NCBI GenBank assembly: GCA_964533575.1
Contig: CAZHMG010000001.1
Coordinates: 11,385-75,384 of the forward strand
Direction: 5' to 3'
DNA from: an uncultured Thermoleophilia bacterium
GTDB lineage: Bacteria > Actinomycetota > Thermoleophilia > UBA2241
Length of the DNA stretch: 64,000 nt
Shown here: one piece after another, positions 5,331 through 23,103 of the stretch
Numbering within the stretch: the stretch's first letter is position 1
Layout: the number at the start of each line of letters is the position of its first letter
Position numbers and translations under genes: made by a program
The notes under the pieces: model-generated
Seen by the model: only the letters and a program-made list of their open reading frames with translations
What the model was told of the DNA's origin: nothing
The model's database searches: none

Positions 5331-5508
5331 CGGATCCCCCTTCCGCGCGTGCGATCGATCGTCTGTCGCGACGCTTCGACGATACCACGCACTCGGCAAC
5401 GCACGGAAGTACGAGCGCAGTTGACGCGGGCTGAGCGGCGCGACGGACGTGCGAGCGCCGCCGAACCAGCGGGGAGTATCCTTAGGGAGTCGACTCCCTG
5501 GAGAGGTG

Positions 5509-5625
5509 ATGCTGTCGCTGCATCCCGCACGGCGCCGTGCCGTCGCGCTTGTGATCATCGCCGTGCTGATCACGGTGTCGGCGATTGTGCCGACCTGGTG
5601 CGCCGTCAGCGGCCTCTGGCGGTGA
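5509..5625 (+). CDS. Small single-TM protein (38 aa)
   Basis: GGAGAGG RBS before ATG 5509; MLSLHPARRRAVALVIIAVLITVSAIVPTWCAVSGLWR; stop 3 nt before the molybdoenzyme start. Below the ORF-track cutoff. Confidence 0.5.
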   Translation: MLSLHPARRRAVALVIIAVLITVSAIVPTWCAVSGLWR

Positions 5626-5628
5626 CTG

Positions 5629-7464: not shown

Positions 7465-8769
7465 TCAGGGCACTTCGATGAGAATCGCGCGGAAGTCGTT
7501 CACATTCGTGCGCGTAGGCCCTGTGAAGAACAAGCCGTCCACGCCTTCGAAGAACGCGTAGGCATCATTGCGAGCCAGGGCATCCGTGATCTGAACGGCC
7601 GTATTGAGCCCGTGCCGAAGGGCACCTGGGAGCAGGATGGCCCCGGCATTCTCCCCACTGCCGTCTATGCCGTCCGTATCCGCGGCGAGGGCGCTGATGC
7701 CGTTCGCGCCGGCGAGTCCCTGAGCCAAGCCAAGCAGGTACTCGGTGTTACGGCCGCCGCAACCGTCGCCGGTCACGGTCACCGTGGTCTCACCGCCGGA
7801 CAACAGCACGCACGGAAGGTCTGTCAGCCCGTGGCCCGAGGCGCAACTGAGAGCGATCTCTGCATGCCGCTTCCCGACTCGACGGGCCTCGCCTTGAATG
7901 TCGTAACCAAGCACAATGGGTGAGACGCCGGCTGCGCGAGCGGCGCGTGCCGCAGCATCAATAGCCTCGCGCGACGTCGCCAGCATCACCACATCATCCT
8001 CGGCGAAGGAGCCGTCACCGGGCTTCGGCGTCTCGCCGATGGCGTCATCACCGGCGAGCCGATCGCGTCGTCCCTCAGCACCATCTCCGATATGGCGCAC
8101 CACTGCCTCGGGCTCGGAGATGCGATAGCGGCGGAGGACGGCGCGCGCGTCGGCGAAGGTGGTCGGGTCAGGCACTGTCGGACCGGACGCGATGACCGAG
8201 GGCTCGTTACCCGGGACGTCGGAGATGACAAAGGTCACGACACGAGCCGGATGGGCGGCCTCCGCGAGACGGCCACCCTTGACGAGCGACAGATGCTTGC
8301 GGACGCAGTTGATGTCGCTGATGCTCGCGCCGCTGCGCAGCAAGGCGCGACTGACCGACTGCAGGTCCTGGAGCGTGAGTCCATCAGCCGGCCACTCCAG
8401 CAGCGCCGAGCCGCCGCCGGACAGAAGGCAAATGGCCAGATCGTGGGGCCCCAAATCGCGCATGATGTGCAGGATGCGTCGGCCCGCCTCCTGCCCCGCA
8501 GCATCTGGGACCGGATGTGCCGCCTCCAGCACATCGATCCGTTCACAGGGCTCGCCGTGCCCGTAGCGAGTGACAACAAGGCCCTCAAGTGGACCTTTCC
8601 ACTCGCGCTCCACGGCGAGCGCCATGCGGGCGGCAGCTTTGCCCGCTCCGACGACCACGGTCCGGCCCGGAGGGGGCGGCGGCAGACGCCCCGGCATGAG
8701 TTGCAGGGCGTCCGCCGCCGCCACAGCGGCGTCAAACAGCGTGTACAGCAGCGCGTGACGGGCACACAC
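7465..8769 (-). CDS. Glycerate 2-kinase, type II (DUF4147/MOFRL; TtuD/GckA family)
   Basis: GAGKAA, EAAHPVPD, LLSGGGSAL, VRKHLSLVKGGRLA, SGGETTV, GGRNTE, DTDGIDG and TGPTRTNVND. Confidence 0.93.
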   Translation of the reverse strand: MCARHALLYTLFDAAVAAADALQLMPGRLPPPPPGRTVVVGAGKAAARMALAVEREWKGPLEGLVVTRYGHGEPCERIDVLEAAHPVPDAAGQEAGRRILHIMRDLGPHDLAICLLSGGGSALLEWPADGLTLQDLQSVSRALLRSGASISDINCVRKHLSLVKGGRLAEAAHPARVVTFVISDVPGNEPSVIASGPTVPDPTTFADARAVLRRYRISEPEAVVRHIGDGAEGRRDRLAGDDAIGETPKPGDGSFAEDDVVMLATSREAIDAAARAARAAGVSPIVLGYDIQGEARRVGKRHAEIALSCASGHGLTDLPCVLLSGGETTVTVTGDGCGGRNTEYLLGLAQGLAGANGISALAADTDGIDGSGENAGAILLPGALRHGLNTAVQITDALARNDAYAFFEGVDGLFFTGPTRTNVNDFRAILIEVP

Positions 8770-8805: not shown

Positions 8806-10290
8806 TCAGTAGGTGGGCGACAGGTCGAATTGGATGTGCTTCAGTTCCGTGTACTCGTACAGCGCCTCGATGCCCATCGCTCGGCCGTTGCCGCTTGCTT
8901 TGCAGCCGCCGAACTCGGTCTCTGCGTAGAACCTGTTGTAGGTATTGATCCAGACGGTGCCGGACTTGATCTTCCTGGCGACGCGCACCGCTCTGCTCAC
9001 ATCCCGGGTCCAGACGGCGCCGGCCAGACCGTACTTCGTTCCGTTCGCCAGCTTGATCGCCTCGTCCTCGGTGTGGAACTTCTGCACCGCGAGCACTGGC
9101 CCAAAGACTTCCTCGTTCACGAGTCGCGCATCGGGAGCGAGATCAGTGACGACGGTGGGAGCAACGAACCAGCCCTTGTCGTACTCGGCGCCGGCCAGAC
9201 GCTCGCCGCCCGTCAGCACCTTCCCCTCGCTCTTGCCGATTTCGATGTACTTCATCACCTTGTTGAGATGCGCCTCGGCGATCATCGGCCCCAGCTGAGT
9301 GCCCTCGTCCATACCTCGGCCGACCTTCAGCTTCTCGATCTCCGCCTTCATGCGACTGGTGAACTCATCGTGGATGGTGTCCTGCACGATGAGGCGCGTG
9401 CCCGCCATGCAGAACTGCCCCGACGTCTGGAGGAATGCCCAGACCGCGGCCGGGACCGCCTTGTCGAAATCCGCGTCCTCGAACACGACGTTCGGCGACT
9501 TGCCGCCCAATTCGGTGACGATCTTCTTGTGGGTCGGCGCGGCCACCTGGGCAATCTGAGCCGCCGTGATCCCGTCGCCGGTGAAGGCGATCATGTCGAC
9601 GTCGTGACTTGCGGCGAGGGCGTCACCGACAACGGGACCCGAACCGGACACGATGTTGACGATGCCTTTGGGGATCGACTCGACCTGAGAGAGGATCTCG
9701 ATGAACTGGGTGCAGATGGCCGGGGTGTAGCTGGCAGGCTTCACGATGACGGCGTTCCCCGCCGCGAGCGCCGGCGCCATGTCCCGGATCATGAGCGATG
9801 CCGGCCAGTTCCAGGGCACGATGATGGCGACCACTCCTATGGCCTCGCGGACGACAACGCCGAACGCAGTCTCCGAGATATTGGCGGAACGACCGTAGAC
9901 CTGGCGTGCCGCGCCGGCGTAGTAGCGAAGGAAGTCGATACAGCCGGCGTACTTCCCCGCAACGCACACGTGCGCCTCTTCCAGCGTCTTGCCGTTCTCG
10001 CGGGACAGCAGCTCGCAGAGCTCATCCTCCCGCGCTTCCAGGCGATCGGCGAACTCCAGCAACGCCTTCTGACGCAGGCCGGGCGACACCGACCATTCAG
10101 TCGTCTCGAAGGCGTGTCGTGCCGCCGCGATCGCCCGATCCATGTCGCCGGCCGTCGACTTCTGCGCGTACGCAACGACCTCCTGGGTTGCCGGATCGTA
10201 GCTCGTGATCAGTTCCCCGGATTCAGAGGGAACCCACTCCCCGCCGATGTAGTTCAAGTACGTCTTCGCTTCTGTCGCCACCGACATCAC
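8806..10290 (-). CDS. NAD(P)-dependent aldehyde dehydrogenase
   Basis: PWNWP, FTG, ELGGKSP, catalytic Cys in GQFCMA, EEVFGP and FGGCKASG. Confidence 0.95.
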   Translation of the reverse strand: MMSVATEAKTYLNYIGGEWVPSESGELITSYDPATQEVVAYAQKSTAGDMDRAIAAARHAFETTEWSVSPGLRQKALLEFADRLEAREDELCELLSRENGKTLEEAHVCVAGKYAGCIDFLRYYAGAARQVYGRSANISETAFGVVVREAIGVVAIIVPWNWPASLMIRDMAPALAAGNAVIVKPASYTPAICTQFIEILSQVESIPKGIVNIVSGSGPVVGDALAASHDVDMIAFTGDGITAAQIAQVAAPTHKKIVTELGGKSPNVVFEDADFDKAVPAAVWAFLQTSGQFCMAGTRLIVQDTIHDEFTSRMKAEIEKLKVGRGMDEGTQLGPMIAEAHLNKVMKYIEIGKSEGKVLTGGERLAGAEYDKGWFVAPTVVTDLAPDARLVNEEVFGPVLAVQKFHTEDEAIKLANGTKYGLAGAVWTRDVSRAVRVARKIKSGTVWINTYNRFYAETEFGGCKASGNGRAMGIEALYEYTELKHIQFDLSPTY

Positions 10291-13040
10291 ACGACCTCCT
10301 GTGTTCGGCCATTTCCTGCAGCGTGTGTTCGCGATCCGGCGAGGCGCGCTCGCTCGCCCAACTGATGCTCGATCGCCAGCAACCTGTTGTACTTCGCGTT
10401 CCGCTCGCCCCGCAGGGGCGAGCCGAGCTTGATTCGCTTCGCCGCGACGCCCACCGCCAGATCGGCGATGAAGCTGTCGTTCGTGTCGCTGGATCGCAGC
10501 GAGACGGTCACGGATAGCCCGGCGTCAGACGCCAGCCGGGCGGCGGCCAATGCGCCGCTGACCGTTCCGATCTGGTTGACCTTGAGCAGGACGGCGTTCG
10601 CCGCCCCGCGCTCGATACCGATGGCGATGCGTGCCGCGTTACTGGCAAAGAGATCGTCGCCGACGATGTCGAGCCCGGGAAGCGCCGCCGTCATAGCACG
10701 GAAGCCCTCGAAGTCATCCTCGTCAAAGGCGTCCTCGAGGAAGACCAGCGGGAACTCGGCGACCAGGGAACGGAAGTACTCGACGACGTCATCGCGCGTC
10801 CTGCTCGCCCCGGCGAGCATGTACCGGTCTTCCGCCCGTTGATAGAAGGCGCTGGCCGCGACGTCGACGCCGAGACTCATGCGGTCGCCGTAGCCCGCAC
10901 GATCAGAGGCCTCGAGCATGAGGGTGAAGGCCTCGCGAGTATCGGCGATGGGCGGCGCGAGCGCGCCGCCAACATCCGGTACCTGCCCGTACTTCGCGCA
11001 CAGCAACTCCTCGAGGACGATCCGGACCTCAAGGATGGCCTCGACCGCATCCGCGAACCGCATGAAGCCGTCCGGAATCAGGATGTAGTCCTCGATCTCC
11101 AGTCGCGACGGAGAGTGAGGACCGCCGGCGAGCACCGTCGCGATGGGAACGGGCAGCTGCGTGCGTCCAGCGCCCCCAAGATGCTCGTAGAGTGGTACAC
11201 CGCGGCTGAGCGCACCCGCTCGCGCCGCGGCCAGAGATGCAGCCAGCACGGCATTGCCGCCGAGATGGCTGAGGTTCGGTGTGCCGTCGAGCTCGAGGAG
11301 AGCCGCGTCAACGCGTGCCTGATCAGCGACCGGCATGCCGATGAGGGCCGGCGCGATGACACGATCGATCATGTCGACAGCGCGCCTGACGCCAAGGCCG
11401 CGGTAGCGGTCCCCGCCGTCGACCAGCTCCACCGCTTCGTAGGTTCCCTTCGACGTTCCGCTGGGCACGGACGAGACGGCCTCGAAGCCGCGCTCTGTGC
11501 GAACCGTGGCGCTGACGGTGGGGCGTCCGGACCCGCTCAGGACCTCGAGACCCTCAACCGCCGCGATCGAATCTGCATGCTCGGTGGCCTTTGCCTGGCC
11601 TTCGGACGACACACCTTTGGAGGCGCTTCGCGCCGGCCTGTCACCGACGAGGAGGACTCTCAGGTTCATCACGTTGGTCCCCGTGTGGCCGGTGCAGATC
11701 GCACCCCCCAACTGCATCAGAGCCTCGCTGCTCCGGTGTGATGTGAGGGCTGCGGCGAGGTCGATGCCGAGCCGAGCTGCCTGCTCGCGCGTCGTCCAGT
11801 CGACGAGTCCGCCGGCGATGTCGGTCGGCCCATCGGTGCCGTCGGAATCCAGCGCCGCGAAGGCGACACGTTCCTTCGCTGAGACCTTGGCGGCGAACGC
11901 CAGCGCCGTCTCCTGATTCGGACCACCCCAGCCGTCGTCCCCGCTGATCGTGACCGTTGTCTCGCCGCCCGAGACGATCGCGGCCGGCAGCGGAAACGGC
12001 GAGTCGTCTCCCGCCATCTGCTTGGCGAGGCCCGCGAGAAAGACGCCGAGCTCGCGGGCCTCGCCCTCGATCGCCGTCGACAGCACGGTCGCGCCGTACC
12101 CCATACGGAACGCGTGATCGGCCGCGGCCCTGCACGCGCTTGCCGCGTCGCCGACGCTCACTATCGTCGATTCCGTGCCCTCAAGGCTCTTCAGCGTCTC
12201 GAGCTGAGAGTGCCTCTCCCCCGACTCGAGGTACTCACGTATTGATCTCGGCGTCTCCGCCCACAATCCGTAGTGTGTGAGCACTGCGACGGCATCCGAG
12301 AACGTGGTCGGATCAGGAAGGCACATGTCGGGCCAGGGCAAGCCCTCAGGAGCCGTGTCAAGCGTGAGCGTGATGGCTCTTGCGGGCTGCACCGCCGTCA
12401 CGAGCCTGCCACCCTTGAGCAGGCAGAGATGCCGGCGGACTGTGTTTATCTCCCGTATCGTCGCGCCACACTTCAGCAGCAGGTCCGTGAGGGTTGCCAC
12501 GTCGCTCAGGCTGATGCCCTCGGGAGGCAGCGTCGCCAATGACGAGGCGCCGCCCGTGACGACGAGGAAGACGAGATCGCGGGGTCCGGCGGACTGGGCG
12601 AGGTGCAGCATGTGCCGAGCGCCCCGCACGCTGTCGTGGTCTGGCAGCGGATGACCGGCTTCCCGTACCTCGACCCTGCTCAGTTGCCCGGTCTCACCCC
12701 TCTTGACGACCACGACGCCGCCGCTCACGCGCTCTCCCAGAAGTTGCTCGAGGGCGGCAGCGATGCGCAGAGAAGCCTTGCCGGCGCCGACGATGAAGAC
12801 GCGGTCAATCTCTCGCAGATCAACGACCTCATCGCCCGCGTGAAGGATCTCCCCCGCGAGTCGCACGCGCTCGAAGGTGCCCACCGCCGGATCGGCGCCG
12901 CGCACGCCCGCGACGAGGATGTCGAGCAGATCGGCGCGCAAGCGCGCGTCGCCGTGTCCCAGCAGCACGTCACGATTCACAATCGCGGCTGATTGCAGCG
13001 ATGGAAGCGGAGAGCGGTAGTCCTCGGCCCCGAGCGTCAT
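10287..13040 (-). CDS. Fusion of type II glycerate kinase (DUF4147/MOFRL) and an enolase-like domain
   Basis: N-half: GAGKAS, EAGHPLPD, TGGASSL, KGGRL, SGGETTV, DSDGTDG, TGTNVMN. C-half: PSGTS, EAVEL, LGGNA, VDVAAS, LED, VGDDLF, LLKVNQIG, ERNAKYNRL. One open frame; start set at ATG 13040 (ATGA overlap). Confidence 0.9.
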   Translation of the reverse strand: MTLGAEDYRSPLPSLQSAAIVNRDVLLGHGDARLRADLLDILVAGVRGADPAVGTFERVRLAGEILHAGDEVVDLREIDRVFIVGAGKASLRIAAALEQLLGERVSGGVVVVKRGETGQLSRVEVREAGHPLPDHDSVRGARHMLHLAQSAGPRDLVFLVVTGGASSLATLPPEGISLSDVATLTDLLLKCGATIREINTVRRHLCLLKGGRLVTAVQPARAITLTLDTAPEGLPWPDMCLPDPTTFSDAVAVLTHYGLWAETPRSIREYLESGERHSQLETLKSLEGTESTIVSVGDAASACRAAADHAFRMGYGATVLSTAIEGEARELGVFLAGLAKQMAGDDSPFPLPAAIVSGGETTVTISGDDGWGGPNQETALAFAAKVSAKERVAFAALDSDGTDGPTDIAGGLVDWTTREQAARLGIDLAAALTSHRSSEALMQLGGAICTGHTGTNVMNLRVLLVGDRPARSASKGVSSEGQAKATEHADSIAAVEGLEVLSGSGRPTVSATVRTERGFEAVSSVPSGTSKGTYEAVELVDGGDRYRGLGVRRAVDMIDRVIAPALIGMPVADQARVDAALLELDGTPNLSHLGGNAVLAASLAAARAGALSRGVPLYEHLGGAGRTQLPVPIATVLAGGPHSPSRLEIEDYILIPDGFMRFADAVEAILEVRIVLEELLCAKYGQVPDVGGALAPPIADTREAFTLMLEASDRAGYGDRMSLGVDVAASAFYQRAEDRYMLAGASRTRDDVVEYFRSLVAEFPLVFLEDAFDEDDFEGFRAMTAALPGLDIVGDDLFASNAARIAIGIERGAANAVLLKVNQIGTVSGALAAARLASDAGLSVTVSLRSSDTNDSFIADLAVGVAAKRIKLGSPLRGERNAKYNRLLAIEHQLGERARLAGSRTHAAGNGRTQEVV

Positions 13041-14005
13041 GGTCGAACCGAACCCGAGAGATCGTTGGCCGGCCATGTCGGGGGTCGGCCGTTCAGCACT
13101 TCGACGATTCCCTGGGCCGAGTGCACCGCCATGTTCTTCATGGCGGCGTTCGTATGTGCAGCCATGTGCGGTGTGAGTACGACGTTCTCCAGCTCGAAGA
13201 GCGGGTCACCGTCGGCGGGTGGATCCGTGGTGAAGACGTCGATGCCCGCGCCGGCGAGGTGGCCCGAGCGCAAGGCTGCGACGAGCGCTGGTTCGTCCAC
13301 GAGCTCAGCCCGTGCACAATTGATCAGATATGAACCCGGCCTCATCTGCCCGAGTTCCTCAGCGCCGATGAGGCCGCGCGTCTGCTCGTTCAGCGCCGCA
13401 TTCAGCGAGACGAAATCGGATGACCGCAGCAGCGACTCCAGATCGGCGACCATCTGAACGGGGACGTCCGGCGGCGCTGCCGCGACGGATGGATCGAAGG
13501 CCTTCACTGCCATGCCGAGGCCGCGCGCGGCACGTACCGCGAGCGCGCGGCCGACGTTGCCGAGCCCGACGATGCCGAGCGTCGCTTCGCCGAGCTCGAT
13601 TCCGTAATGGCGGTGACGGAAGTCGAAATCTCCCGCGCGTATGGCTGCATCCGCGCGCGTCATATTCTTCGCGAGCACGATGATCATGCCCAGCACGTGC
13701 TCGGCGACGGAGACGCCGTTGGCCGCGGGAGTGTAGGTGACTTGAATCCCGCGCCGGGTCGCCGTCGCCAGATCGATGGTGTCCAGGCCTGCGCCGTGAC
13801 GGGAGATCACTCGCAGCCGCGACCCTGCCTCGATGATCTCACGGTCGACCTTGAAGTTGCGGATCAGCAGGCCGTCCGCATCCGCCACCGCTGCCCTGAG
13901 GCTCTCGTGATCACACTCCGGCAGTTGGCGCACGGACAGCCCGTGCGAAGCCAGGAGTTCTATGCCTTCGGCGGCTATCGGTTGCGCAACGAGCACTACT
14001 TGCAT
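13037..14005 (-). CDS. D-isomer-specific 2-hydroxyacid dehydrogenase (SerA/hydroxypyruvate reductase-like)
   Basis: GAGLDTID, VAEH, Rossmann GLGNVG, INCARAELVDE, GIDVF and LTPHMA. Confidence 0.93.
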   Translation of the reverse strand: MQVVLVAQPIAAEGIELLASHGLSVRQLPECDHESLRAAVADADGLLIRNFKVDREIIEAGSRLRVISRHGAGLDTIDLATATRRGIQVTYTPAANGVSVAEHVLGMIIVLAKNMTRADAAIRAGDFDFRHRHYGIELGEATLGIVGLGNVGRALAVRAARGLGMAVKAFDPSVAAAPPDVPVQMVADLESLLRSSDFVSLNAALNEQTRGLIGAEELGQMRPGSYLINCARAELVDEPALVAALRSGHLAGAGIDVFTTDPPADGDPLFELENVVLTPHMAAHTNAAMKNMAVHSAQGIVEVLNGRPPTWPANDLSGSVRP

Positions 14006-14056: not shown

Positions 14057-15016
14057 TTAGATGTGAGCCTCCGCCTCGAAGCACGCGACCAGGTGGCCCG
14101 GACGCACTTCGCGCAGCAGCGGCAGGCGTTCGGTGCAGCCGGGCTGCACCCAGGGGCACCGCGGCGCGAGGTTGCAGCGGTTGTCGGGAAGATCGACGGG
14201 GCTGGGGATCTCTCCCTTCAGCATGACCCCCTCCCGCTTCTGGTCCGGATCCGGCGACAGGTGAGCGCTGAGGAGTGCGCGCGTGTATGGATGGATGGGC
14301 AAATCGAGCACTGAACGGGTGGGGCCCTGCTCGATGATTCGCCCGAGATACATGACCAGGATGCGGTGACTCAGCTCGCCGATGACGGTGAGGTCGTGCG
14401 TGATGAAGAGATAGGCCATACCAAGCTCGGCCTGCAGCTTCCTCAGCAGCAGCACGATCTCGGCCCGAAAGCGGATGTCGAGCAGCGACGTCGGTTCGTC
14501 AAGGATGACGAGCTTGGGATTCGTCGCGATCGCGCGCGCTATCCCTACGCGTTGCTGCTCGCCCTGGGTCAATTCGACGGGATACTTGGCCATGTGCGCC
14601 GTGCTCAGCTCAACCATCTCGAGCACCTCCGCGACGCGGCGGCGCCGGGCCGCCCTCTCCAGGGCGCCCTGGACGATCAGGGGATCCTCGATGATCTTCC
14701 TGACGATCTTCCGTGGATTCAGTGAGTCGTAGGGATCCTGAAAGACGATCTGCGCCTGACCTCGGAACTGCTTGAGCTGCTTTCTGTCGAAGCGGGTGAT
14801 GTCGTCGCCGAGAAAGATGGTCGAGCCCGAGGTGGGCTCGATAAGATGGATCGCGCACCTTCCAAGCGTCGTCTTGCCGGAGCCGCTCTCGCCGACCAAC
14901 CCGACCGTCTCGCCCTGGGCGATCTCGAAGTCGACCCCGTTGACCGCATTCACCTTCGAATGCTTCTTCAGGGGGAAGCACTTGTACAGATTCTCGATCG
15001 TGAGCACCGAACTCAT
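14057..15016 (-). CDS. Oligopeptide/dipeptide ABC transporter ATP-binding protein (OppF/DppF)
   Basis: GESGSGKT, QDPYDSLNP, DEPT, HPYTRALL and the C-terminal Cys motif. Start set at ATG 15016 (ATGA overlap). Confidence 0.92.
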   Translation of the reverse strand: MSSVLTIENLYKCFPLKKHSKVNAVNGVDFEIAQGETVGLVGESGSGKTTLGRCAIHLIEPTSGSTIFLGDDITRFDRKQLKQFRGQAQIVFQDPYDSLNPRKIVRKIIEDPLIVQGALERAARRRRVAEVLEMVELSTAHMAKYPVELTQGEQQRVGIARAIATNPKLVILDEPTSLLDIRFRAEIVLLLRKLQAELGMAYLFITHDLTVIGELSHRILVMYLGRIIEQGPTRSVLDLPIHPYTRALLSAHLSPDPDQKREGVMLKGEIPSPVDLPDNRCNLAPRCPWVQPGCTERLPLLREVRPGHLVACFEAEAHI

Positions 15017-16005
15017 GTCAAGGTTTCCCATTTGTGACACTTCACCTCATGGCCCTCGCTCACCGCGCTCATCTCCGGGTTCACGTCCCAGCATTGATCG
15101 CCCGAGAGGCTGCAGCGCGGAGCAAACGAACATCCGTTGCCGACCCGCTTTCCCGTCGAAAACCCGGACACTTCAGCGTCCAGACCGACTCCCCCTGATT
15201 GCGAGGCGAAAGCTGCCGCCAGCAGGTAGCGGCTGTAGGGGTGCCGCGCATTCTTGAAGAAGTCCCTCACCGTCCCCATCTCGACCAGCTCGCCTTGCCC
15301 AAGCACGGCGACCTTGTTGCAGTAGTTGGCGACGATGCCGAGATCGCGCGTGGCCAGCAGCACGCCCGCGCGAAGCTCCTTCAACAGCCCCGACATGAGC
15401 TCGAGCACCTGCGTCTGGATGGTGACGTCGAGACCCATCGTGGGTTCGTCGGCGAGCAGCACCTGCGGGGTCATCGCCAGGGCGATCGCGAGCACAACCC
15501 TCTGAGCCATTCCCCCGCTCAACTCGTGCGGGTAGTTCTCGTAGTTGCGGGCAGGATCCGGCATCTGGACGAGGCGGAACATCTCGAGCACCTTCGCCCG
15601 TGCCTGAGCGCGATCCAGCTTCAGATTCGCCTGCATCACGTTGCACGCCTGGTCGCCGACGGTGATGATCGGACTCAGGCGTTCGCGGGCGTTGGGAGGG
15701 ATGAAGACGATGGCCTTGCCCCAGATGCGGCGCAGCTGCTCCTCGTCCTTGTCGAGGAGGTTCTCCCACGCTTCCCCATTACGGACGGAGAGCTCCTCCG
15801 CCTCCATCCACAGAGGTGGCTGGGGGTTGCGTCCCAGAGCATCGATCAGCACCGACTTGCCCGATCCGGTCTCGCCCACGAGTCCGACCACGTCTGACTG
15901 CTCCAGCGTAATTGTGATGCCGTTCAGCAGCTTCCGGCTCGTCCCCGTGAACGCCGACGGGGCGTACACGCTGAGATCTCTGACCTTGAGGACCGCGTCT
16001 GTCAT
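15013..16005 (-). CDS. Oligopeptide/dipeptide ABC transporter ATP-binding protein (OppD/DppD)
   Basis: GETGSGKS, YPHELSGGMAQRV, ADEPTMGLDVT, HPYS and CSFAPRC. Confidence 0.92.
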   Translation of the reverse strand: MTDAVLKVRDLSVYAPSAFTGTSRKLLNGITITLEQSDVVGLVGETGSGKSVLIDALGRNPQPPLWMEAEELSVRNGEAWENLLDKDEEQLRRIWGKAIVFIPPNARERLSPIITVGDQACNVMQANLKLDRAQARAKVLEMFRLVQMPDPARNYENYPHELSGGMAQRVVLAIALAMTPQVLLADEPTMGLDVTIQTQVLELMSGLLKELRAGVLLATRDLGIVANYCNKVAVLGQGELVEMGTVRDFFKNARHPYSRYLLAAAFASQSGGVGLDAEVSGFSTGKRVGNGCSFAPRCSLSGDQCWDVNPEMSAVSEGHEVKCHKWETLT

Positions 16006-16019
16006 GGCTCCATCCAGTG

Positions 16020-16049
16020 GGGGGGCCGGGCCGGTGCGCCCGGCCCCCC
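16020..16049 (-). other. Intra-operon stem-loop after the substrate-binding protein gene (likely mRNA stabiliser or attenuator)
   Basis: Perfect 12-bp inverted repeat GGGGGGCCGGGC-cggtgc-GCCCGGCCCCCC between the SBP and OppD genes. Confidence 0.7.
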
Positions 16050-16075
16050 TGTCTCCCTTTACGCTCTCTGCCGGA

Positions 16076-17737
16076 TCACTTCGTGACTTCGTCGTACCTG
16101 GTGGTTTCGCCGATGTCCAGGCTCCACCCGTTGATGTTGTCGCGCACGGCCATCCGGTAGCCCTCCTGGACGACGAAGCCCACGGGCGCCGCCTCGAGGA
16201 TGTCCTCCTGGATCTTCTGGTGGAACTCGTAGCGCTCCTGCTCGTCGACGATGCTCACGCCCTCCTTGATCATCTTGTCGATGTTCGGATCGGAGAAGTA
16301 GCCGAAGTTGCAGAAGCCGTTGGTGTCGTACATGAGGCCGACGTCGTAGTTCGGATCCGGAGCGAACGGGTAGATCCGGATGAGCGCAAACGGGGCCTTC
16401 TTTGAGGTGTAGAGCGTCTCAAGGGTGCCGAGCGGAGTCTTGCGCAGCGAGACGTTGATGCCGATCTTCGCCAGCTCTTCCTTGATCGTGACGCACGCCG
16501 TCTCGTGCGGCAGCACGCCGGCCTGGTAGTAGAGGTCCACGTCGAACCCCTTCTCGTAGCCGGCCTCCTTCATCAGCTGCTTGGCCTTCTCGATGTCGTA
16601 GTTGTAGGGGAAGGCGCTGGTATCCAGGGCGCCCGGATACTGGACCGGGTATACCGCCGCCATGGGCTGCGCCATGCCGTAGTAGGCCGACTGGATGATC
16701 TTGTCGCGATCGATCGCGAAGTTGACGGCTTGACGCACCTTCTTGTTCGCGAACTCGGGCACAACTTTCTGGTTCAGCACGAGGTGCGTCAGCCAGAAGC
16801 CCTGCGTCTCAACAGTCTTGACGCCTTCCACGTCGCGCAGCGACGTGATCTCGTTCGGCGACATCTCCTGAGCCACGTCGATCGTCCCGTCCTGGAGGGC
16901 GGCGTACCTGGTGGAGCTCTCGGGGATGACCTTGATGATGATCTTCTTGATCTTCGGCTCGCCCATGAAGTAGTTGGGGTTCGCCGTCAGCACGGCCTGC
17001 TTGCCGGGGGTGAACTCGGTCACGTAGTAGGGGCCGTAGGCGGGCGAGTTCTTGTCGATGTAGGCGGTTCCGGCATCGCCGAGGGGATCACCGTTCGATT
17101 CGGCCGCAACCTGCTGCTTGTCATAGGGGAAGGTGCAGTTGCTGAGGGCCATCATCGAGACGACCTGCGGGTTGGGCACCGTCGAGGTGAAGGAGATCGT
17201 GTACTTGTCGATGACCTTGATCGCCTTGATGTCGGGAATGGCCATGACGCTGGCGTAGAAGGCGCTGGCGCCGTTCATCTTCAGGCCGCGCTCCCACTTG
17301 TAGTACACATCGTCGGCGGTCAGCTCGTGGTCGTAGGCGCTCTTGACGCCCTTCTTGAGCTTGAAGGTGACGGTCTTGCCGTCCTCGGACACCTCATGGG
17401 ATTCGGCCAGACGAGGCTCAAGCGAGGTGTACTCAGACACCGTCAGGCCCTCCGCCTGCTCCGAAGGGATGCTTTCGTAGCGAAGGAGCGTGTCCGTCAA
17501 CTGGCGGAGAAACACCCAGATCATCGGGTGATTGGCCTTCTCGACGTCGAGGTGCGGCGGCAGTTCGATCGTGCCGACGATCAAGGTGTCGCTGCCGCCC
17601 GCGGCTGCAGGGCTTGCCTCGTTCGACGCGCTCGGCGAGTCGTCGCCGCCGCACCCCACGAGCAGCAGACCGACTGCCATGACGAGGGCTGCTACGAGGC
17701 CCAGAATCACGAACTTTCGTTTGTAGAAGTCTCCCAT
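16076..17737 (-). CDS. ABC transporter substrate-binding lipoprotein, family 5 (OppA/DppA-like)
   Basis: Lipobox LLVGC; PRLAES...TFKLKKGVK...LTADDVYY family-5 signature; VRQAVNFAIDR. Start set at ATG 17737 after a GGGAG RBS. Confidence 0.93.
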   Translation of the reverse strand: MGDFYKRKFVILGLVAALVMAVGLLLVGCGGDDSPSASNEASPAAAGGSDTLIVGTIELPPHLDVEKANHPMIWVFLRQLTDTLLRYESIPSEQAEGLTVSEYTSLEPRLAESHEVSEDGKTVTFKLKKGVKSAYDHELTADDVYYKWERGLKMNGASAFYASVMAIPDIKAIKVIDKYTISFTSTVPNPQVVSMMALSNCTFPYDKQQVAAESNGDPLGDAGTAYIDKNSPAYGPYYVTEFTPGKQAVLTANPNYFMGEPKIKKIIIKVIPESSTRYAALQDGTIDVAQEMSPNEITSLRDVEGVKTVETQGFWLTHLVLNQKVVPEFANKKVRQAVNFAIDRDKIIQSAYYGMAQPMAAVYPVQYPGALDTSAFPYNYDIEKAKQLMKEAGYEKGFDVDLYYQAGVLPHETACVTIKEELAKIGINVSLRKTPLGTLETLYTSKKAPFALIRIYPFAPDPNYDVGLMYDTNGFCNFGYFSDPNIDKMIKEGVSIVDEQERYEFHQKIQEDILEAAPVGFVVQEGYRMAVRDNINGWSLDIGETTRYDEVTK

Positions 17738-17862
17738 GGTGTTTCTCCCCTCACGCCTGAATCCGGATGATCGTCCGCCCTGCTCGCCCGGGCGGCTCCC
17801 ACAAGTCAACACTGCTTCTCAGCTCGCCTCCTTGCTTCGACTGTCGCAACGGTCGACGCCAA

Positions 17863-18804
17863 CTACATCCGGGCCGCGATGGCCTCGGCCTCGACTTCCT
17901 CATCGGTGAGCACCGCTTCGTCCGACTCACCCACGCCATAACCCATCCGAATGCGCTCCAGCGGATCCAGAAGGGCGGTGATGGCCTCACCCACGACCGA
18001 GTAGCAGAAGATGGTCACGGCCATGAACACGCCTGGGAAGAACGACGGCCACCACTGGCCGGTGATGATCGAAGGGCCACCGATCGCGATCATCGACCCC
18101 CACTCGGGCGTCGGGACGCGCACGCCGGCCCCGACGAAACTCAGGCCGGCGATCAGCAGGATCCCGAAGCCCATGACGGTCGACAGCATCGCGATGACCG
18201 GATTCAGCGCGTTGGGCATCAGGTGCACGAACGCGATCCTGAGGTTCGAATCGCCGGCGGCCCGCGCGGCCTCGACGAAAGTCCTGTCCCGCAAGGCCAG
18301 CACCTCCGAACGCGCCAGCCGCAGATTCGAGATGTGGTTCGCCACGACGATCGCGAGGACCAGGTTGGCCGGCCGTGGGCCGAACGCAGCGACGAGCAAC
18401 AACGCGAGGACGAAGATCGGGAACGCCTGCAGGACGTCCTCGATGCGGAGGATGATCCTCGCGACGAATCCGTTCAGCCCTCCGCGGCCGTCGAAGTACC
18501 CGGTGTACACCCCAACCGGCGCACCGATAAGCATCGACAGGGCGGCGCCGGCAAAGGCGATCACCAGATCGGTTCGATAGGCCGCAATGGTGCGCGAGAA
18601 CACGTCCATCGCGTTGGCGTCCGTCCCGAACCAGTACTCTCCAGACGGGGGGAGAAGCACCGCCCCGGGGATGGATTCCGTCGGGGAATGCGGCACCACG
18701 TACGGACCTATGAGCGCCAGGAGCAGCGAGATCGCGACGTAGATGAAGCCGAGCGTATAGAGAGGGTGTCTCCTCAGGTATCTGAGCGCATAACTCTGGC
18801 TCAT
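17863..18804 (-). CDS. Peptide ABC transporter permease (OppC/DppC)
   Basis: WFGTD, EAA motif FVEAARAAG, HLMPN and PEWGSM. Confidence 0.93.
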   Translation of the reverse strand: MSQSYALRYLRRHPLYTLGFIYVAISLLLALIGPYVVPHSPTESIPGAVLLPPSGEYWFGTDANAMDVFSRTIAAYRTDLVIAFAGAALSMLIGAPVGVYTGYFDGRGGLNGFVARIILRIEDVLQAFPIFVLALLLVAAFGPRPANLVLAIVVANHISNLRLARSEVLALRDRTFVEAARAAGDSNLRIAFVHLMPNALNPVIAMLSTVMGFGILLIAGLSFVGAGVRVPTPEWGSMIAIGGPSIITGQWWPSFFPGVFMAVTIFCYSVVGEAITALLDPLERIRMGYGVGESDEAVLTDEEVEAEAIAARM

Positions 18805-18825
18805 CGCGCATCCCCTGTCATGCGA

Positions 18826-19854
18826 CTAGCCAAGGCTCTTGATCCGTGGGTCGACCCAGAAGTAGACGAAGTCGACCAGCATGTAGACGACCAGGGTGAG
18901 CAGGGCCGACACCAGCACCACTCCCTGGATGGCCTGGAAGTCAGAATTGATGACTGCCTGTACGGCGTACTGGCCGAATCCACCCCAGCTGAAGACGGTC
19001 TCTACGAGCACGGCGCCGCCGATCAGGAAACCGAAGGTGAAGGCGGTCATCGTGGCCACCGACGGGTACACGGACTTGCGAATGTACGTCTGGATGAGGC
19101 CGGGCGAGAGGCCGGAGACCTTCGCGTAATCCACGTAGGCGCTCTGCTTGACGTGATTCGCCGTGACGATGGCGATCTTGGCAACGGCGCCGCTGTAGAC
19201 GAACGTGAGGACGAAGACCGGAAGCGCGAGGTGAGTGAGGCTGCTCCACAGCGCCTCCCAGTTGGCGGTGAGCAGGCTGTCGATCACGTACGCGCCCGTG
19301 ATCGTGTCCGGAGGCGCCATACCGATGTCGATCTGCCCCACCGGCGCAGGCGCCCACTGCAGCTGCACGTAGAAGATGAAGATCAGCAGCAGACCCAGCC
19401 AGAAGTCCGGGAAGGCCCCGGCCAGCATCCCGTAGCCGAACATCGTCTTCCGGGCGGCTCCCCGCGTCACGCTCTTGCGCACCGACACGGACTTGAGCGC
19501 GAGCGGCACCACCACCAGGATCGTGAGCAGCAGCGAGATGACGATCAGTTCGAGCGTGGCAGGCAGCCTCATGGCTATGTCGTCGCGGACCGTGTTGCCC
19601 GTGTACCACGACTTCCCAAGGTCGCCTTGCACCACGTTGGTGAGGTAGTACCAGAACTGCTCTATGAGCGACCCGGTGAGCCCCATCTGCTCCCTGATCT
19701 TCTCCACGCCCTCCTCGGGCACCAGCGGCCCAGCCATGAGGCGGGCGGGGTCACCGGGAATCAGACGGACGACCAGGAAGGCGATCAGGACGATACCGAC
19801 TATCTGGGGTATGAAGAATACTGCGCGTACCCCGAGGTACTTCAGGTACTTCAT
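18826..19854 (-). CDS. Peptide ABC transporter permease (OppB/DppB)
   Basis: IPGDPA, GDLGKS, RLPATLEL, VETVFSWGGFG and VDPRI. Confidence 0.93.
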   Translation of the reverse strand: MKYLKYLGVRAVFFIPQIVGIVLIAFLVVRLIPGDPARLMAGPLVPEEGVEKIREQMGLTGSLIEQFWYYLTNVVQGDLGKSWYTGNTVRDDIAMRLPATLELIVISLLLTILVVVPLALKSVSVRKSVTRGAARKTMFGYGMLAGAFPDFWLGLLLIFIFYVQLQWAPAPVGQIDIGMAPPDTITGAYVIDSLLTANWEALWSSLTHLALPVFVLTFVYSGAVAKIAIVTANHVKQSAYVDYAKVSGLSPGLIQTYIRKSVYPSVATMTAFTFGFLIGGAVLVETVFSWGGFGQYAVQAVINSDFQAIQGVVLVSALLTLVVYMLVDFVYFWVDPRIKSLG

Positions 19855-19873: not shown

Positions 19874-20629
19874 TCAGTGCAGGGTGGCGCCGCAGTCGAC
19901 GAGCAGTGTCTGGCCGGTGATGTCGTCCGACAGGCTGGAGGCGAAGAAGAGCACCGCTCCCACAGGACTGTCGGGCTGCTGCGAGCGCTTGAGGCACGTC
20001 ATCGGGATGACCGTCTGCTTGCCCTCTTCACCAAAGACATCCAGGCTCGCCTGGGTCGTGACCATGCCGGGAGCGACGGCATTCACGTTGATGTTGGAGG
20101 GCCCCAGCGATCGCGCGAGCGTGCGCGTAAGGCCGAGCACGGCGCCCTTCGCCGCCGTGTAGTGGTCTATGCCAGGGAAGCCGTTCCAGACGATGGCCGA
20201 ACCCATGTTGATGATCTTGCCGCCGCCCTGCTGCTTCATGTAGGGATACACGGCCTTGCAGCAGAGGAACATGCCCTTGGCGTGGACCGCCATGATCTTG
20301 TCCCACTCCTCCACGCTGATCTCGGTGAAGAACTTGGGGGTGAGGCCGCCGTAGATGCCGGCGTTGTTCACGAGAACGTCGAGCCTGCCGAACCGCTCCC
20401 ACGTCCGTTCGGCCATGGTCGTCACGTCGTCCTCGGAGGTGACGTCGACGTGGAGTGCGAGGACCTCGCCCCCCATGGCCTCGATCTCGTCGGCTACACC
20501 GTGGCAATCGAGGATGTCGCCCACCACGATACGCGAACCTTCGCGCGCAAAGGCGAGGGCGAACTCCCTGCCGAGGCCGCGGGCGCTTCCCGTCACGGCC
20601 ACCGTCTTACCCTCGAGGCCCATGTTCAT
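19874..20629 (-). CDS. Short-chain dehydrogenase/reductase (SDR)
   Basis: TGSARGLG, VNNAG, catalytic YTAAK, NAVAPG and ITGQ. Start set at ATG 20629 (ATGA overlap). Confidence 0.93.
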   Translation of the reverse strand: MNMGLEGKTVAVTGSARGLGREFALAFAREGSRIVVGDILDCHGVADEIEAMGGEVLALHVDVTSEDDVTTMAERTWERFGRLDVLVNNAGIYGGLTPKFFTEISVEEWDKIMAVHAKGMFLCCKAVYPYMKQQGGGKIINMGSAIVWNGFPGIDHYTAAKGAVLGLTRTLARSLGPSNINVNAVAPGMVTTQASLDVFGEEGKQTVIPMTCLKRSQQPDSPVGAVLFFASSLSDDITGQTLLVDCGATLH

Positions 20630-21063
20630 GACCGCCCACGCCCTTCCGCCCCGCCAGAACCGTTCAGGGTTGCAGCCGGCGGGCAGGCGAAGATCCCGTC
20701 GACCTCCACCTGAATGCCCCGCAGTCCCACTTCGACCAGCGTTCGGGCCGGGCGCCGGTCCGGGAAGTACTCGCGGTACAGCTCGTTGAACGACGGCACG
20801 TTGGCGACGTTCGCGAGGTAGATCGTGAGCTTCAGCGCATCGGCCAGCCCACATCCCGCCGCCTCGACCACCGCCGCCAGATTGTCGAGCGTGACGCGAA
20901 CCTCGTGCTCGAAGCTGCCCACGTCAGGCTCATTACGCTGGGGATCGAGGGGTCCCTGGCCCGAGACGAACAGGAGTCCGCCGTAGCGGACCGCCTGAGG
21001 AAAGGGCCCCCGCCCCACGGGCGCTTTCGAAGAGTGCACTGTGTCGATCTGAAGTGAACCCAT
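20626..21063 (-). CDS. RidA/YjgF/UK114 family imine deaminase
   Basis: GPFPQAV, LFVSGQGP, FNELYREYF, PART (conserved Arg) and VEVDGI. Start set at ATG 21063. Confidence 0.9.
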   Translation of the reverse strand: MGSLQIDTVHSSKAPVGRGPFPQAVRYGGLLFVSGQGPLDPQRNEPDVGSFEHEVRVTLDNLAAVVEAAGCGLADALKLTIYLANVANVPSFNELYREYFPDRRPARTLVEVGLRGIQVEVDGIFACPPAATLNGSGGAEGRGRS

Positions 21064-21092
21064 GGTGCCTCCGCCTCTCCCCGTCACCTCAT

Positions 21093-22259
21093 TCACGTTG
21101 TCCTCGGCTCAGGGGTGGAGCGCAAACCGAGGAGCCGCGCGACATTGCCCCCGAACAACAGATCTCGATGGTCGTCCGAGAGAGTCAGATCGAGACACTC
21201 GAGGTAGTCTCGGCCCTGCCTGTAGGTGCAGTTGCGCTGGATGTTCGGCAGGTCTGAACCCCACACCAGTTTCTCCGGACCGAGGACGTCGAACAGCTCC
21301 TCGGCGAGCGGCTTCACCTGAGCATACGGATACCGCCATACGGTGCCGCCGGGCACCGGATGGCTGACCTGCATGGGGAACAGCAGCTCGAGGTGAACGT
21401 TCGGCCGCCGCCAGATCTCCCAGAGTTCATCCGGGACGGCCTTCAGCGTGTCGCCGTCCCTCAGATGGCCCAGGGGCACGCCATGGACGAGCACGCACTG
21501 GATATCGGGAGCATAGTCGAGCCATCGCTCGAACCGGTGCATCTGGACCATGAAGCGCTCGAACGGCGACTTGTCGCGCAGCTCGGGCTCTGGACTGCCG
21601 GTGATGTCCCAGAACACCGGGATCCCCAGAGCCCGCACCTCGTCCCAGAAAGCGTGGTAGCACTCGTCATCAAGATGGCGCCGATACCCGATTTCGAAGA
21701 ACCGGGGGGTTCCGAAGTACAGCGCCTTCAGGCCGAGATCCTTGACGCCACGCGTGAGCTCGGCGATCTGCCGCTCCTCGTCGGCCCGCGCCTCGTTGAC
21801 CTGGACGGTGCCCACGAAGGTGTCGGGATACGCTCGCTGAGCCTCGGCGAAAAAGTCGTTCAGGCACCCATAAAGCCAAGCGTTCTGGAGCACCGCCATC
21901 TCCACGCCCGCGTACGCCAGCTCCGCCTTGATGTAGTCCGGGGATGCCGTGGTGTCCTGGAGAGTCGGCCCGTACAGGTTCAGATAGTAGTCCTCACGGT
22001 TCTTCGTCCACTCAAGCCGTCCGTACTTGCCGACGCGGAAGGCGACGTCGAGAGCGCCGTCGGCTCCCGTCGACTGCGGATCCCAAACCCCCCACTCGGC
22101 CCGATCGGCGACCACACTGTCGTCGCTGCTCCTTCTGACTGCCTGCGACGGCGAGTCCGAGACGAACTTCTGCAGATACAGCAAGGTCGTGAGATCAGAA
22201 TCAGGACGCCTCTCGCCGGACAGCGCCGGAAAGGCGTGGACATGAGCATCGATGATCAT
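21093..22259 (-). CDS. Amidohydrolase family protein (amidohydrolase_2-like)
   Basis: IIDAHVH metal-binding motif, VLVHG and WGSDLP. Start set at ATG 22259. Confidence 0.88.
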   Translation of the reverse strand: MIIDAHVHAFPALSGERRPDSDLTTLLYLQKFVSDSPSQAVRRSSDDSVVADRAEWGVWDPQSTGADGALDVAFRVGKYGRLEWTKNREDYYLNLYGPTLQDTTASPDYIKAELAYAGVEMAVLQNAWLYGCLNDFFAEAQRAYPDTFVGTVQVNEARADEERQIAELTRGVKDLGLKALYFGTPRFFEIGYRRHLDDECYHAFWDEVRALGIPVFWDITGSPEPELRDKSPFERFMVQMHRFERWLDYAPDIQCVLVHGVPLGHLRDGDTLKAVPDELWEIWRRPNVHLELLFPMQVSHPVPGGTVWRYPYAQVKPLAEELFDVLGPEKLVWGSDLPNIQRNCTYRQGRDYLECLDLTLSDDHRDLLFGGNVARLLGLRSTPEPRTT

Positions 22260-22302
22260 GTGCTTCTGGCCTCCAACGCTGTCATGGACGGCATGAGCTC
22301 TC

Positions 22303-23103
22303 TCAGTCGATGTTGTCGGTGACGACGTAGCCGCCGCTGATGAGCTGCAGACCCGGCATGTCGTCGTTGGGCCGGCCCTGCAGCGCAACGCTGTAGAGGT
22401 CGCCGCGCAGGTGGACCCTGACGATCTGCACAGGGCGATCGCCCTCGATGTAGCTGACCGACTCGTGCAGGAGAAGCGGCTGCGCGGCCTCTACACCGAG
22501 CATGGCGGCCTGTCTCAATGTGGGCTGAACTGGGCGGATGTCCATCTCGACGCGCACCACGTCGAACCCTGCCGAACGGATCAAGCCGAGAATGGACTGG
22601 TGCGCGAGGTCGGCCTTGGCGATCACACGACCGAGCTCAAGCGGGAAGAAGCGCGACTCGAGCCAGAGTGGCTTGTCGCCTGCCCGCCCGAGACGGCGAA
22701 TGCGGACGACGATGTCATGACACTCGAGGCCCAGCTTGGCAGCCACAGACTCCGGCGCCTCTCCCTCCGTGGCTTCGAGCAGATCAGCTTGGGGCTCCAA
22801 GCCACCAACCCTGAGCTCCTCCTCGAAGCCGCGGAACTGACTGTGTGAGTCCCCAGGCGCGGACAGGCGATCGACCAACGAAGACAGAACGGTCCGGGCG
22901 CCACGACGACGAATGACCAAGCCGTCCTCTTCGAGCCGGTCGAGCGCCCGCCGAACGGTGACGCGACTCACGCCATACTTGGCGGCCAATTCGTTCTCGC
23001 CCGGAATCGGCACGCCGGCCTTGTAGTCCCCGCCGGCGAACTCTTGGCGGAGCTTCAACTCCAACTGGTAGTACAGGCTCACTGGCGCTTTGGTGTCGAG
23101 CAC
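22303..23103 (-). CDS. GntR family transcriptional regulator (HutC/UTRA subfamily)
   Basis: LYYQL, IPGENELAAKYGVSRVTVRRAL winged HTH, C-terminal UTRA-like domain (RIRRLG...PLWLE). Confidence 0.93.
   Translation of the reverse strand: MLDTKAPVSLYYQLELKLRQEFAGGDYKAGVPIPGENELAAKYGVSRVTVRRALDRLEEDGLVIRRRGARTVLSSLVDRLSAPGDSHSQFRGFEEELRVGGLEPQADLLEATEGEAPESVAAKLGLECHDIVVRIRRLGRAGDKPLWLESRFFPLELGRVIAKADLAHQSILGLIRSAGFDVVRVEMDIRPVQPTLRQAAMLGVEAAQPLLLHESVSYIEGDRPVQIVRVHLRGDLYSVALQGRPNDDMPGLQLISGGYVVTDNID

Follow-up and report, generated by a model that had tools for sequence, protein, structure and literature searches.

The window analyzed here (i.e., the whole stretch of 64,000 nucleotides from contig CAZHMG010000001.1 of an uncultured Thermoleophilia bacterium) carries on its minus strand an operon in which a MOFRL-type 2-hydroxyacid kinase is fused to a paralog of enolase (Table 1). 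The open reading frame (ORF) of the fusion runs from 13076 to 10287 and could encode at most 929 amino acids (aa); the ATG at 13040 gives a 917-aa protein. Position 13040 is likely the true start, since the sequence ATGA combines this start codon with the stop codon of the 2-hydroxyacid dehydrogenase gene upstream and since a database copy of the protein (P0002) is also 917 aa long. The stop codon of the fusion overlaps the GTG start codon of the next gene, for an aldehyde dehydrogenase (as GTGA). Four Pfam domains follow one another in the protein (numbering of P0001), namely, DUF4147 (residues 50 to 284), MOFRL (366 to 471), Enolase_N (504 to 633; 141.6 bits), and Enolase_C (640 to 917; 254.9 bits).

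The original prediction for this locus described a single 917-aa frame joining a MOFRL kinase to a complete enolase fold, and the ORF, Pfam, and NCBIfam data agree with that description. The enolase part shares about 40 to 44% identity with enolases. Its AlphaFold2 model is confident (predicted local distance difference test score [pLDDT], 91.6), and Foldseek superimposes the model on the enolases of Mycobacterium tuberculosis and Methanocaldococcus jannaschii with template modeling (TM) scores of 0.91 to 0.93 and root mean square deviations of 1.4 to 1.6 Å. By sequence and by fold, the closest solved structures are all entries named enolase. Because the NCBIfam eno equivalog TIGR01060 matches the fusion above its cutoff (400.8 versus 300 bits), automatic annotation would name the protein phosphopyruvate hydratase, as in the Joint Genome Institute annotation of a relative (P0004). 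To our knowledge, enolase proper (i.e., Pfam Enolase_N/Enolase_C) is treated as a single-function family, and pipelines give this name to every member.

The frame is continuous. The gene is covered, with no differences listed, by contigs from three other samples of the study, and two of the three bridge the domain junction (X2 at 11361 to 13076 and X4 at 11540 to 11807). The fused frame is also kept in six independent versions from databases or metagenome-assembled genomes (MAGs), with L004, L005, and P0003 to P0008 named as continuous. A stop codon between the domains, which would have spoken against the original prediction, was found neither in the contigs of the other samples nor in the independent assemblies.

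Table 1. Genes and gene parts of the operon in the window (all on the minus strand)
Feature	Position	Strand	Basis or remarks
Fusion gene, MOFRL-type 2-hydroxyacid kinase plus enolase paralog	10287..13040	-	ORF, Pfam, NCBIfam, ATGA overlap
Kinase part (DUF4147 plus MOFRL) and start of the ~25-aa linker (about 11570-11645)	11595..13040	-	Pfam, PDB matches, kinase tree
Enolase-paralog part (Enolase_N plus Enolase_C)	10287..11594	-	Alignments, AlphaFold2 model, Foldseek, tree
GK2, second, free-standing MOFRL kinase of a different MOFRL clade	7465..8769	-	Pfam, gene maps, tree
Aldehyde dehydrogenase	8806..10290	-	Pfam, NCBIfam; downstream of the fusion in L004 and L005 too
D-isomer 2-hydroxyacid dehydrogenase	13037..14005	-	Pfam; stop overlaps fusion start
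Dpp/Opp-type ATP-binding cassette (ABC) transporter	14057..19854	-	Pfam, NCBIfam; same layout in L004 and L005
ABC ATPases	14057-15040, 15013-16005	-	Pfam, NCBIfam
SBP_bac_5 binding protein	16076-17812	-	Pfam, NCBIfam
ABC permeases	17863-18804, 18826-19854	-	Pfam, NCBIfam
Short-chain dehydrogenase	19874..20854	-	Pfam, NCBIfam
RidA (Rid family imine/enamine deaminase)	20626..21096	-	Pfam, NCBIfam; also in L005, L030, L032
Amidohydro_2 family protein	21093..22388	-	Pfam; conserved in L004, L005, L030, L032
GntR/UTRA (HutC-type) regulator, head of the gene row	22303..23103	-	Pfam, NCBIfam; conserved in L004, L005, L030, L032

Active site of the enolase-like domain

The domain was compared in three ways (i.e., a HMMER alignment to solved enolases, a MAFFT alignment with nine canonical enolases including that of its own genome, and a column-wise contrast). 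Residues are numbered as in yeast enolase; these numbers are those of the original prediction, and the alignments contain no yeast sequence. The window protein keeps the equivalents of the Mg ligands (D246, E295, and D320), K345 (K832), K396 (K883), S39 (S542), H159 (H654), and R374/S375 (R861/S862), all as claimed beforehand, except that the retention of H159 does not extend to the subfamily, in which relatives have H, F, or Y. The claimed replacements Q167E, E168D, and H373L are also seen in the alignments to both solved and canonical enolases. QEF has become EDY (E662, D663, and Y664; codons at 11093 to 11085) and SHRSGET has become SLRSSDT (L860 at the H373 site; codon at 10499 to 10497), whereas QEF, DEGG, and SHRS are retained in two aligned canonical solved enolases. 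The claim of E211V stands in part. GDEGGFAP is replaced by PDVGGALAP (D-V-G at the D210/E211 site, 10976 to 10968), and the equivalence is ambiguous: anchoring on GG gives E211V, the ungapped MAFFT alignment gives E211G with D210V, and HMMER leaves a two-residue gap. The exact residue (Val or Gly) hence depends on the alignment, but none of the alignments gives a conserved acid at position 211, either in the window protein or in the subfamily. The set of residues that serves the leaving 3-hydroxyl in enolase (Q167, E168, E211, and H373) is therefore absent from the window domain. Mutating E168, E211, or H373 in yeast enolase reportedly lowers its activity by orders of magnitude. The PDB titles of M. 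tuberculosis enolase mutants (E163A, E204A, and S42A) show the same catalytic positions under study.

This pattern is shared by the relatives of the domain. ED[YF] occurs in 35 of 35 paralog rows, and the H373 site is hydrophobic (30 Leu, 2 Met, 1 Ile, and 1 Val) in all 34 rows that cover it. All 34 rows that cover D246, E295, D320, K345, and K396 retain these residues, and S39 and R374/S375 are invariant wherever covered, so that all residues needed for Mg-stabilized enolate formation (i.e., alpha-proton abstraction) are conserved. Column by column, 32 paralogs and 9 canonical enolases are fixed differently at sixteen positions (A38T, N to T, A to S after H159, Q167E, E168D, A to F, E211G, G to A, A to G, I to L, T to A, H373L, T to F, T397L, D to E, and Q to R). 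By homology, the conserved half of the site is the one expected to bind a 2-phospho-carboxylate and to remove its C2 proton, and the rebuilt half is predicted to face C3.

A clade of enolase paralogs with its own kinases

Scanning one genome per species, we found 29 loci with both the kinase and the enolase paralog (the window is counted separately). Their hosts are Thermoleophilia, several Bacillota lineages (including Lachnospiraceae and Marasmitruncus massiliensis), Desulfovibrionaceae and other Deltaproteobacteria-labeled MAGs, Nitrospirota, Planctomycetaceae, Synergistaceae, Atribacterota, Bacteroidota, and Treponemataceae. In an enolase tree of 105 rows (FastTree; local support values only, no bootstrap), the paralogs form a single clade (37 rows; support, 98) with a core of 33 rows (support, 99). 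The ratios of nonsynonymous to synonymous substitution rates (dN/dS; Nei-Gojobori method) in the enolase-like part are 0.06 to 0.10 where the dS of a pair does not exceed about 1 and 0.15 to 0.17 for the window versus L004 or L005 (the two other Thermoleophilia loci with a fused gene); those in the kinase part are 0.06 to 0.22. These values indicate strong purifying selection on the paralogs rather than decay. Unique and scattered substitutions, the outcome that would have spoken for decay of the window domain, are thus refuted by the clade-wide signature, the single supported clade, and the dN/dS of 0.06 to 0.17. Homologs do share a substitution at the H373 site (L, I, V, or M) under purifying selection, and their E211 site is Gly or variable.

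The same data bear on the reading that the enolase-like domain is catalytically dead, whether because it is decaying or because it serves the kinase in a structural or regulatory role. The absence of the canonical E168, E211, and H373 and the isolated broken copies (the frameshifted enolase-like copy of L018 and the G404 copy with five stops) are what such a reading would predict. However, the low dN/dS, the invariance of the Mg ligands, K345, K396, and R374/S375 in the rows covering them, the confident model, and the fixation of the replaced positions themselves leave it hardly credible.

Besides L018, the kinase copy of L021 is frameshifted, two further loci are cut by contig ends, and L050 (G404:C2) is a decayed pair, with five in-frame stops in the enolase paralog and a kinase remnant at the contig start. 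In M. massiliensis (L024), the enolase-like frame (about 11370 to 12599) opens just past the stop codon of the kinase, yet the lid-loop motif is preceded by no ATG, GTG, or TTG, the earliest of which lies at 11520; this gene may have a rare start codon or a short N terminus.

The paralog is an extra copy. The genome of the window has a canonical enolase on another contig (C36; 687 bits; QEF, DEGG, and SHRS), and five other pair-bearing genomes each have a canonical enolase (658 to 706 bits) in addition to the paralog (383 to 439 bits); the two coexist in all six genomes tested. A second canonical fragment in the genome of the window (L002; G000:C21:33465-34349; 462 bits) lies at a contig end behind a MazG-like gene and could be a real duplicate or stem from the 3.3% contamination reported for the assembly. 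Compared with enolase (EC 4.2.1.11), the paralog has in common the two-domain fold, the Mg ligands, K345, K396, S39, and R374/S375, but it differs in Q167E, E168D, H373L, A38T, T397L, and the lack of an acid at E211, falls in a separate clade, is always the second enolase copy where tested, and shares a transporter operon with a MOFRL kinase, to which it is adjacent or fused.

We used a profile built from 26 paralogs to search 1.84 billion cluster representatives and sorted the best 150 matches by their residues in the key columns of the alignment. Of these matches, 111 were canonical (QEEH), whereas about 11 had the ED signature. A search of the ESM Atlas returned only generic "amidohydrolase" and "enolase" clusters. 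We estimated frequency from an even sample of 401 Bacillota genomes, in which canonical enolases score about 476 bits or less. Four matches lay above this range, and three of them have a MOFRL kinase directly upstream (G226, 671.6 bits; G001, 670.1 bits; and the five-stop copy of G404, 498.5 bits). The fourth (G232, 480.9 bits) is a divergent ED-like enolase whose neighbors are an FAD-linked oxidase, LarA, and a SorC-type regulator, with no MOFRL gene in the 13 kb of sequence covered. Because of this exception, linkage to the kinase is not strict in the outer branches; the core clade is tied to the kinase. The G232 gene itself (L078; G232:C50, 8241 to 9497, minus strand) is an ED-type enolase with FEDY and SMRS, and it also adjoins an energy-coupling factor (ECF) S component. 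The ED clade is thus rare (<1% of sampled species) but phylogenetically wide.

In all 29 loci, kinase and paralog are adjacent or fused: 27 have separate genes, in the order kinase gene and then enolase-like gene and often overlapping, and 2 (L004 and L005) have a fused gene. When 55 MOFRL proteins are placed in a tree, the kinases that are paired with or fused to the paralog fall into a single clade (33 rows; support, 98), together with two fusions of MOFRL with 2-hydroxyacid dehydrogenase (P0009 and P0010); GK2, the free-standing kinase of the window operon, lies outside it. The groupings of this tree mirror those of the enolase tree. Since fused forms occupy two separate places in both trees (Thermoleophilia, and P0007/P0008 in the Lachnospiraceae-type group), the kinase-enolase fusion arose twice. 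The two independent fusions and the overlapping genes hint at channeling of substrate from the kinase to the enolase-like domain. Taken together, the clade signature, the purifying selection, the coexisting canonical enolase, and the dedicated kinase clade make it likely that the paralog has a function distinct from that of housekeeping enolase and coupled to the kinase.

The kinase part closely resembles two solved MOFRL proteins (PH0495, 1x3l, 2.9e-94; TM1585, 2b8n, 2.7e-75), and the GGETTV and DxDGxDGPTD motifs are visible in its alignment to solved members. Like the class II (MOFRL) glycerate 2-kinases (PH0495, TM1585, and that of Thermoproteus tenax), it consists of DUF4147 and MOFRL; unlike them, it belongs to a clade that travels with an enolase paralog. 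It also falls below the cutoffs of the NCBIfam glycerate 2-kinase equivalogs (NF041176, 191.1 versus 550 bits; NF040791, 133.6 versus 670 bits), although these models are archaeal and the misses are weak evidence.

Gene context and proposed reaction

To survey the context, all ORFs of the 29 loci and the window were clustered, and representatives were scanned with Pfam and NCBIfam. In the more common layout (type A; about 19 to 20 loci), a GntR/FCD regulator and a tripartite tricarboxylate transporter (TctC, TctB, and TctA) flank the pair. In five of these loci (L018, L023, L025, L027, and L028), the gene immediately ahead of the kinase encodes a nickel-pincer-cofactor isomerase of NCBIfam "group 22" (in L025, 489 bits; cutoff, 400); L022 has a true LarA, and L011 and L022 have a D-2-hydroxyacid dehydrogenase. 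The second layout (type B) is found in the window, L004, L005, L030 (Bacillota), and L032 (Treponemataceae), which have in common a GntR/UTRA regulator, an Amidohydro_2 protein, RidA, an ABC transporter (Dpp type in Thermoleophilia and Liv type in L030 and L032), a D-2-hydroxyacid dehydrogenase, and the pair; the Thermoleophilia loci add a short-chain dehydrogenase and an aldehyde dehydrogenase. Overall, 6 loci have a nickel-pincer isomerase gene next to the pair, and 7 (the window included) have a D-2-hydroxyacid dehydrogenase gene there. This context points to the catabolism of a 2-hydroxy acid. The closest solved relatives of the dehydrogenase in the window are McyI (1.5e-60) and phosphoglycerate dehydrogenases. 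The substrates of these enzymes are 2-hydroxy acids with a distal anionic group. The fixed place of the "group 22" isomerase before the kinase suggests that it racemizes or epimerizes the same hydroxy acid that the pair uses; excerpts from the LarA literature name no substrate for the group. In the TctABC-type loci, no enzyme gene other than the isomerase or dehydrogenase of some loci is conserved beside the pair, and the product should therefore be a central metabolite.

On the basis of the dedicated kinase clade, the D-specific dehydrogenase or racemase upstream, and the lack of any other conserved enzyme in type A loci, we interpret the pair as a candidate two-step catabolic module, for which we infer the following chemistry, substrate, and product. 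With ATP as the donor, the MOFRL domain would phosphorylate a D-2-hydroxy acid other than plain D-glycerate at its 2-hydroxyl group; this acid would be either taken up or formed in the cell. The enolase-like domain would hold the 2-phospho-carboxylate as enolase does (i.e., with two Mg ions, R374/S375, and K396), K345 would abstract the C2 proton, and a group at C3 would be expelled to give phosphoenolpyruvate (PEP) or a close analogue, which would enter central metabolism. We assign this reading a probability of roughly 0.55. The broader claim that the paralog catalyzes a reaction other than the dehydration of 2-phosphoglycerate (2-PG) is a probable one.

Two forms of the elimination follow from the rebuilt C3 side of the pocket, with E167/D168 in place of Q167/E168, no E211, and Leu at the H373 site. 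The leaving group might need no acid of the E211 type, as would sulfite leaving 3-sulfolactate, or the substrate might carry an extra C3 substituent with E167/D168 acting as the acid, as in tartrate or another C4 2,3-dihydroxy acid. In the sulfolactate form, 3-sulfolactate would be imported (TctABC), phosphorylated at C2, and cleaved by the paralog to PEP and sulfite, with the invested ATP regained via pyruvate kinase. Sulfite as the leaving group fits the loss of E211, the TctABC-type importer, and the phosphoglycerate-dehydrogenase-like partner; nonetheless, we regard this specific form as unlikely. The paralog would then catalyze the reverse of the ComA reaction of coenzyme M biosynthesis, on 2-phospho-3-sulfolactate. 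ComA adds sulfite to PEP in a biosynthetic route and is not known to be a homologue of enolase. The C4 form fits the hydrophobic lining of the pocket, but its product would need more enzymes.

Several observations weigh against this reading or its sulfolactate form. The new conserved residues on the C3 side are mostly hydrophobic (Leu, Phe, and Leu) and poorly suited to an anionic leaving group such as a sulfonate, and the basic residue of the lid loop (SGTS[KR]G) is not universal across the paralogs. No sulfite-handling gene is conserved beside the pair, the sulfite oxidase family gene next to the window operon did not appear among the ORFs inspected on the downstream side of the fusion in L004 and L005, and no link to sulfonates emerged beyond this one unconserved neighbor. 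The kinase domain is very similar to PH0495 (2.9e-94), which we take to be a characterized glycerate 2-kinase, although its PDB entry says hypothetical protein, and every characterized MOFRL enzyme known to us is a glycerate 2-kinase; the prior for D-glycerate is consequently high, and the similarity speaks against a large change of substrate, with glycerate or a near analogue as plausible candidates. A dehydrogenase followed by a kinase equally fits the path from hydroxypyruvate through D-glycerate to 2-PG, and E167/D168 could replace E211 in an ordinary 2-PG dehydration.

These last points lead to a plainer explanation, in which the protein is an ordinary bifunctional glycerate 2-kinase/enolase that converts D-glycerate to 2-PG and then PEP, E167/D168 stand in for E211 and H373, and the pair is kept together just for self-contained glycerate catabolism. 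The TIGR01060 score above the cutoff, the likeness of the kinase to PH0495 and TM1585, the adjoining dehydrogenase (suited to hydroxypyruvate reduction), and the acidic residues at 167 and 168 in 35 of 35 rows are all consistent with it, as are the true LarA in L022 and the racemization of glycerate by enzymes of the lactate racemase group (excerpt of PMC11770544). However, E168, E211, and H373 are invariant in the nine canonical rows and in 111 of the best 150 library representatives, a redundant enolase would not be expected to hold a fixed alternative signature in many phyla, and every genome tested already has a canonical enolase. In addition, the second MOFRL kinase of the window operon, from another clade, would be redundant if both acted on glycerate. 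We therefore consider simple glycerate catabolism improbable, though with an appreciable chance.

Alternatively, the enolase-like domain might racemize or epimerize a 2-phospho acid, with K345 taking the C2 proton and a proton returning from the other face, and pass its product to the canonical enolase or another enzyme. Retention of the base and of the enolate-stabilizing Mg site with loss of the leaving-group acid would suit this activity, and 1,1-proton transfer is common in the enolase superfamily. Yet the alignments show no second base that is conserved on the side opposite K345 (Gly or a variable residue occupies the E211 site), a second racemase would be odd beside the dedicated nickel-pincer racemase genes of 6 loci, and the D-specific dehydrogenase already supplies one enantiomer. 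Such a role is very unlikely.

Returning to the phosphorylation-assisted elimination at C3, a parallel is seen in tartrate operons with TtuD, which likewise combine a MOFRL kinase, dehydrogenases, and a transporter for carboxylate catabolism. Those tartrate and glycerate pathways rely on the housekeeping enolase, whereas the type described here has a dedicated, rewired paralog as its obligatory partner. Our searches turned up neither a paper that mentions the kinase/paralog pair or the proposed intermediates nor a solved structure of the paralog subfamily; the excerpts available from PMC2063504, PMC11770544, PMC11796402, PMC12611868, PMC7583248, and PMC4570537 do not mention the pair. The paralog is a new variant within a very well-known family, possibly with a new reaction. 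A conserved multiphylum clade with a fixed alternative active site and its own kinase likely represents an unrecognized step in hydroxy acid catabolism, and enolases of the ED clade would be systematically misannotated. If the C3 lyase reaction is correct, it would be the first non-enolase activity within enolase proper, and in its sulfolactate form, it would be a novel and widespread way for anaerobes and soil bacteria to desulfonate. The pair also offers access to the substrates of two other protein groups, namely, the nickel-pincer isomerases of "group 22" and a set of TctC binding proteins.

Other genes of the operon and other noncanonical enolases

The remaining genes of the operon add detail to this context. 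GK2 has no counterpart in the gene maps of L004 and L005. The Amidohydro_2 protein has no NCBIfam match and no informative relative, with only a weak match to LigJ (4-oxalomesaconate hydratase). The domain of the short-chain dehydrogenase begins at residue 83 of the longest ORF, and its true start is probably later. Beyond the operon end, a convergent ORF (5629 to 7320, plus strand) encodes a molybdopterin oxidoreductase domain closest to SorA/sulfite oxidases (2.5e-18); we considered it as a sign of sulfite chemistry and dropped it, since it was not among the downstream ORFs inspected in L004 and L005. This long ORF overlaps another on the minus strand (3015 to 6056), and its true start is probably later. 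The minus-strand ORF, downstream of the operon genes and on their strand, encodes 1,013 aa with PPDK_N and PEP-utilizing mobile domains; from these domains, its product would be a PEP synthase or a phosphotransferase-like enzyme.

Two other kinds of enolase-like proteins were noted. In P0011 (860 aa) and P0015 (656 aa), gene calls join an enolase to a MOFRL kinase in the reverse order (enolase and then kinase), and the joining stretch looks frameshifted. Their enolases keep QEF and DEGG (P0011 has SERS for SHRS). These gene calls suggest that further actinobacteria-like genomes have enolase-MOFRL neighbors of a different kind. A second clade of noncanonical enolases (15 rows; support, 99; library matches P0122, P0157, P0162, P0165, P0188, P0202, P0204, P0206, P0214, P0229, P0237, and others) keeps Q167 and E211 and has E168D and H373A/G. 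One of its members (P0204; 745 aa) is fused to a phosphotransferase domain of the APH family, an unrelated kinase fold, and hints that a kinase plus an enolase-like lyase may be a recurring design.

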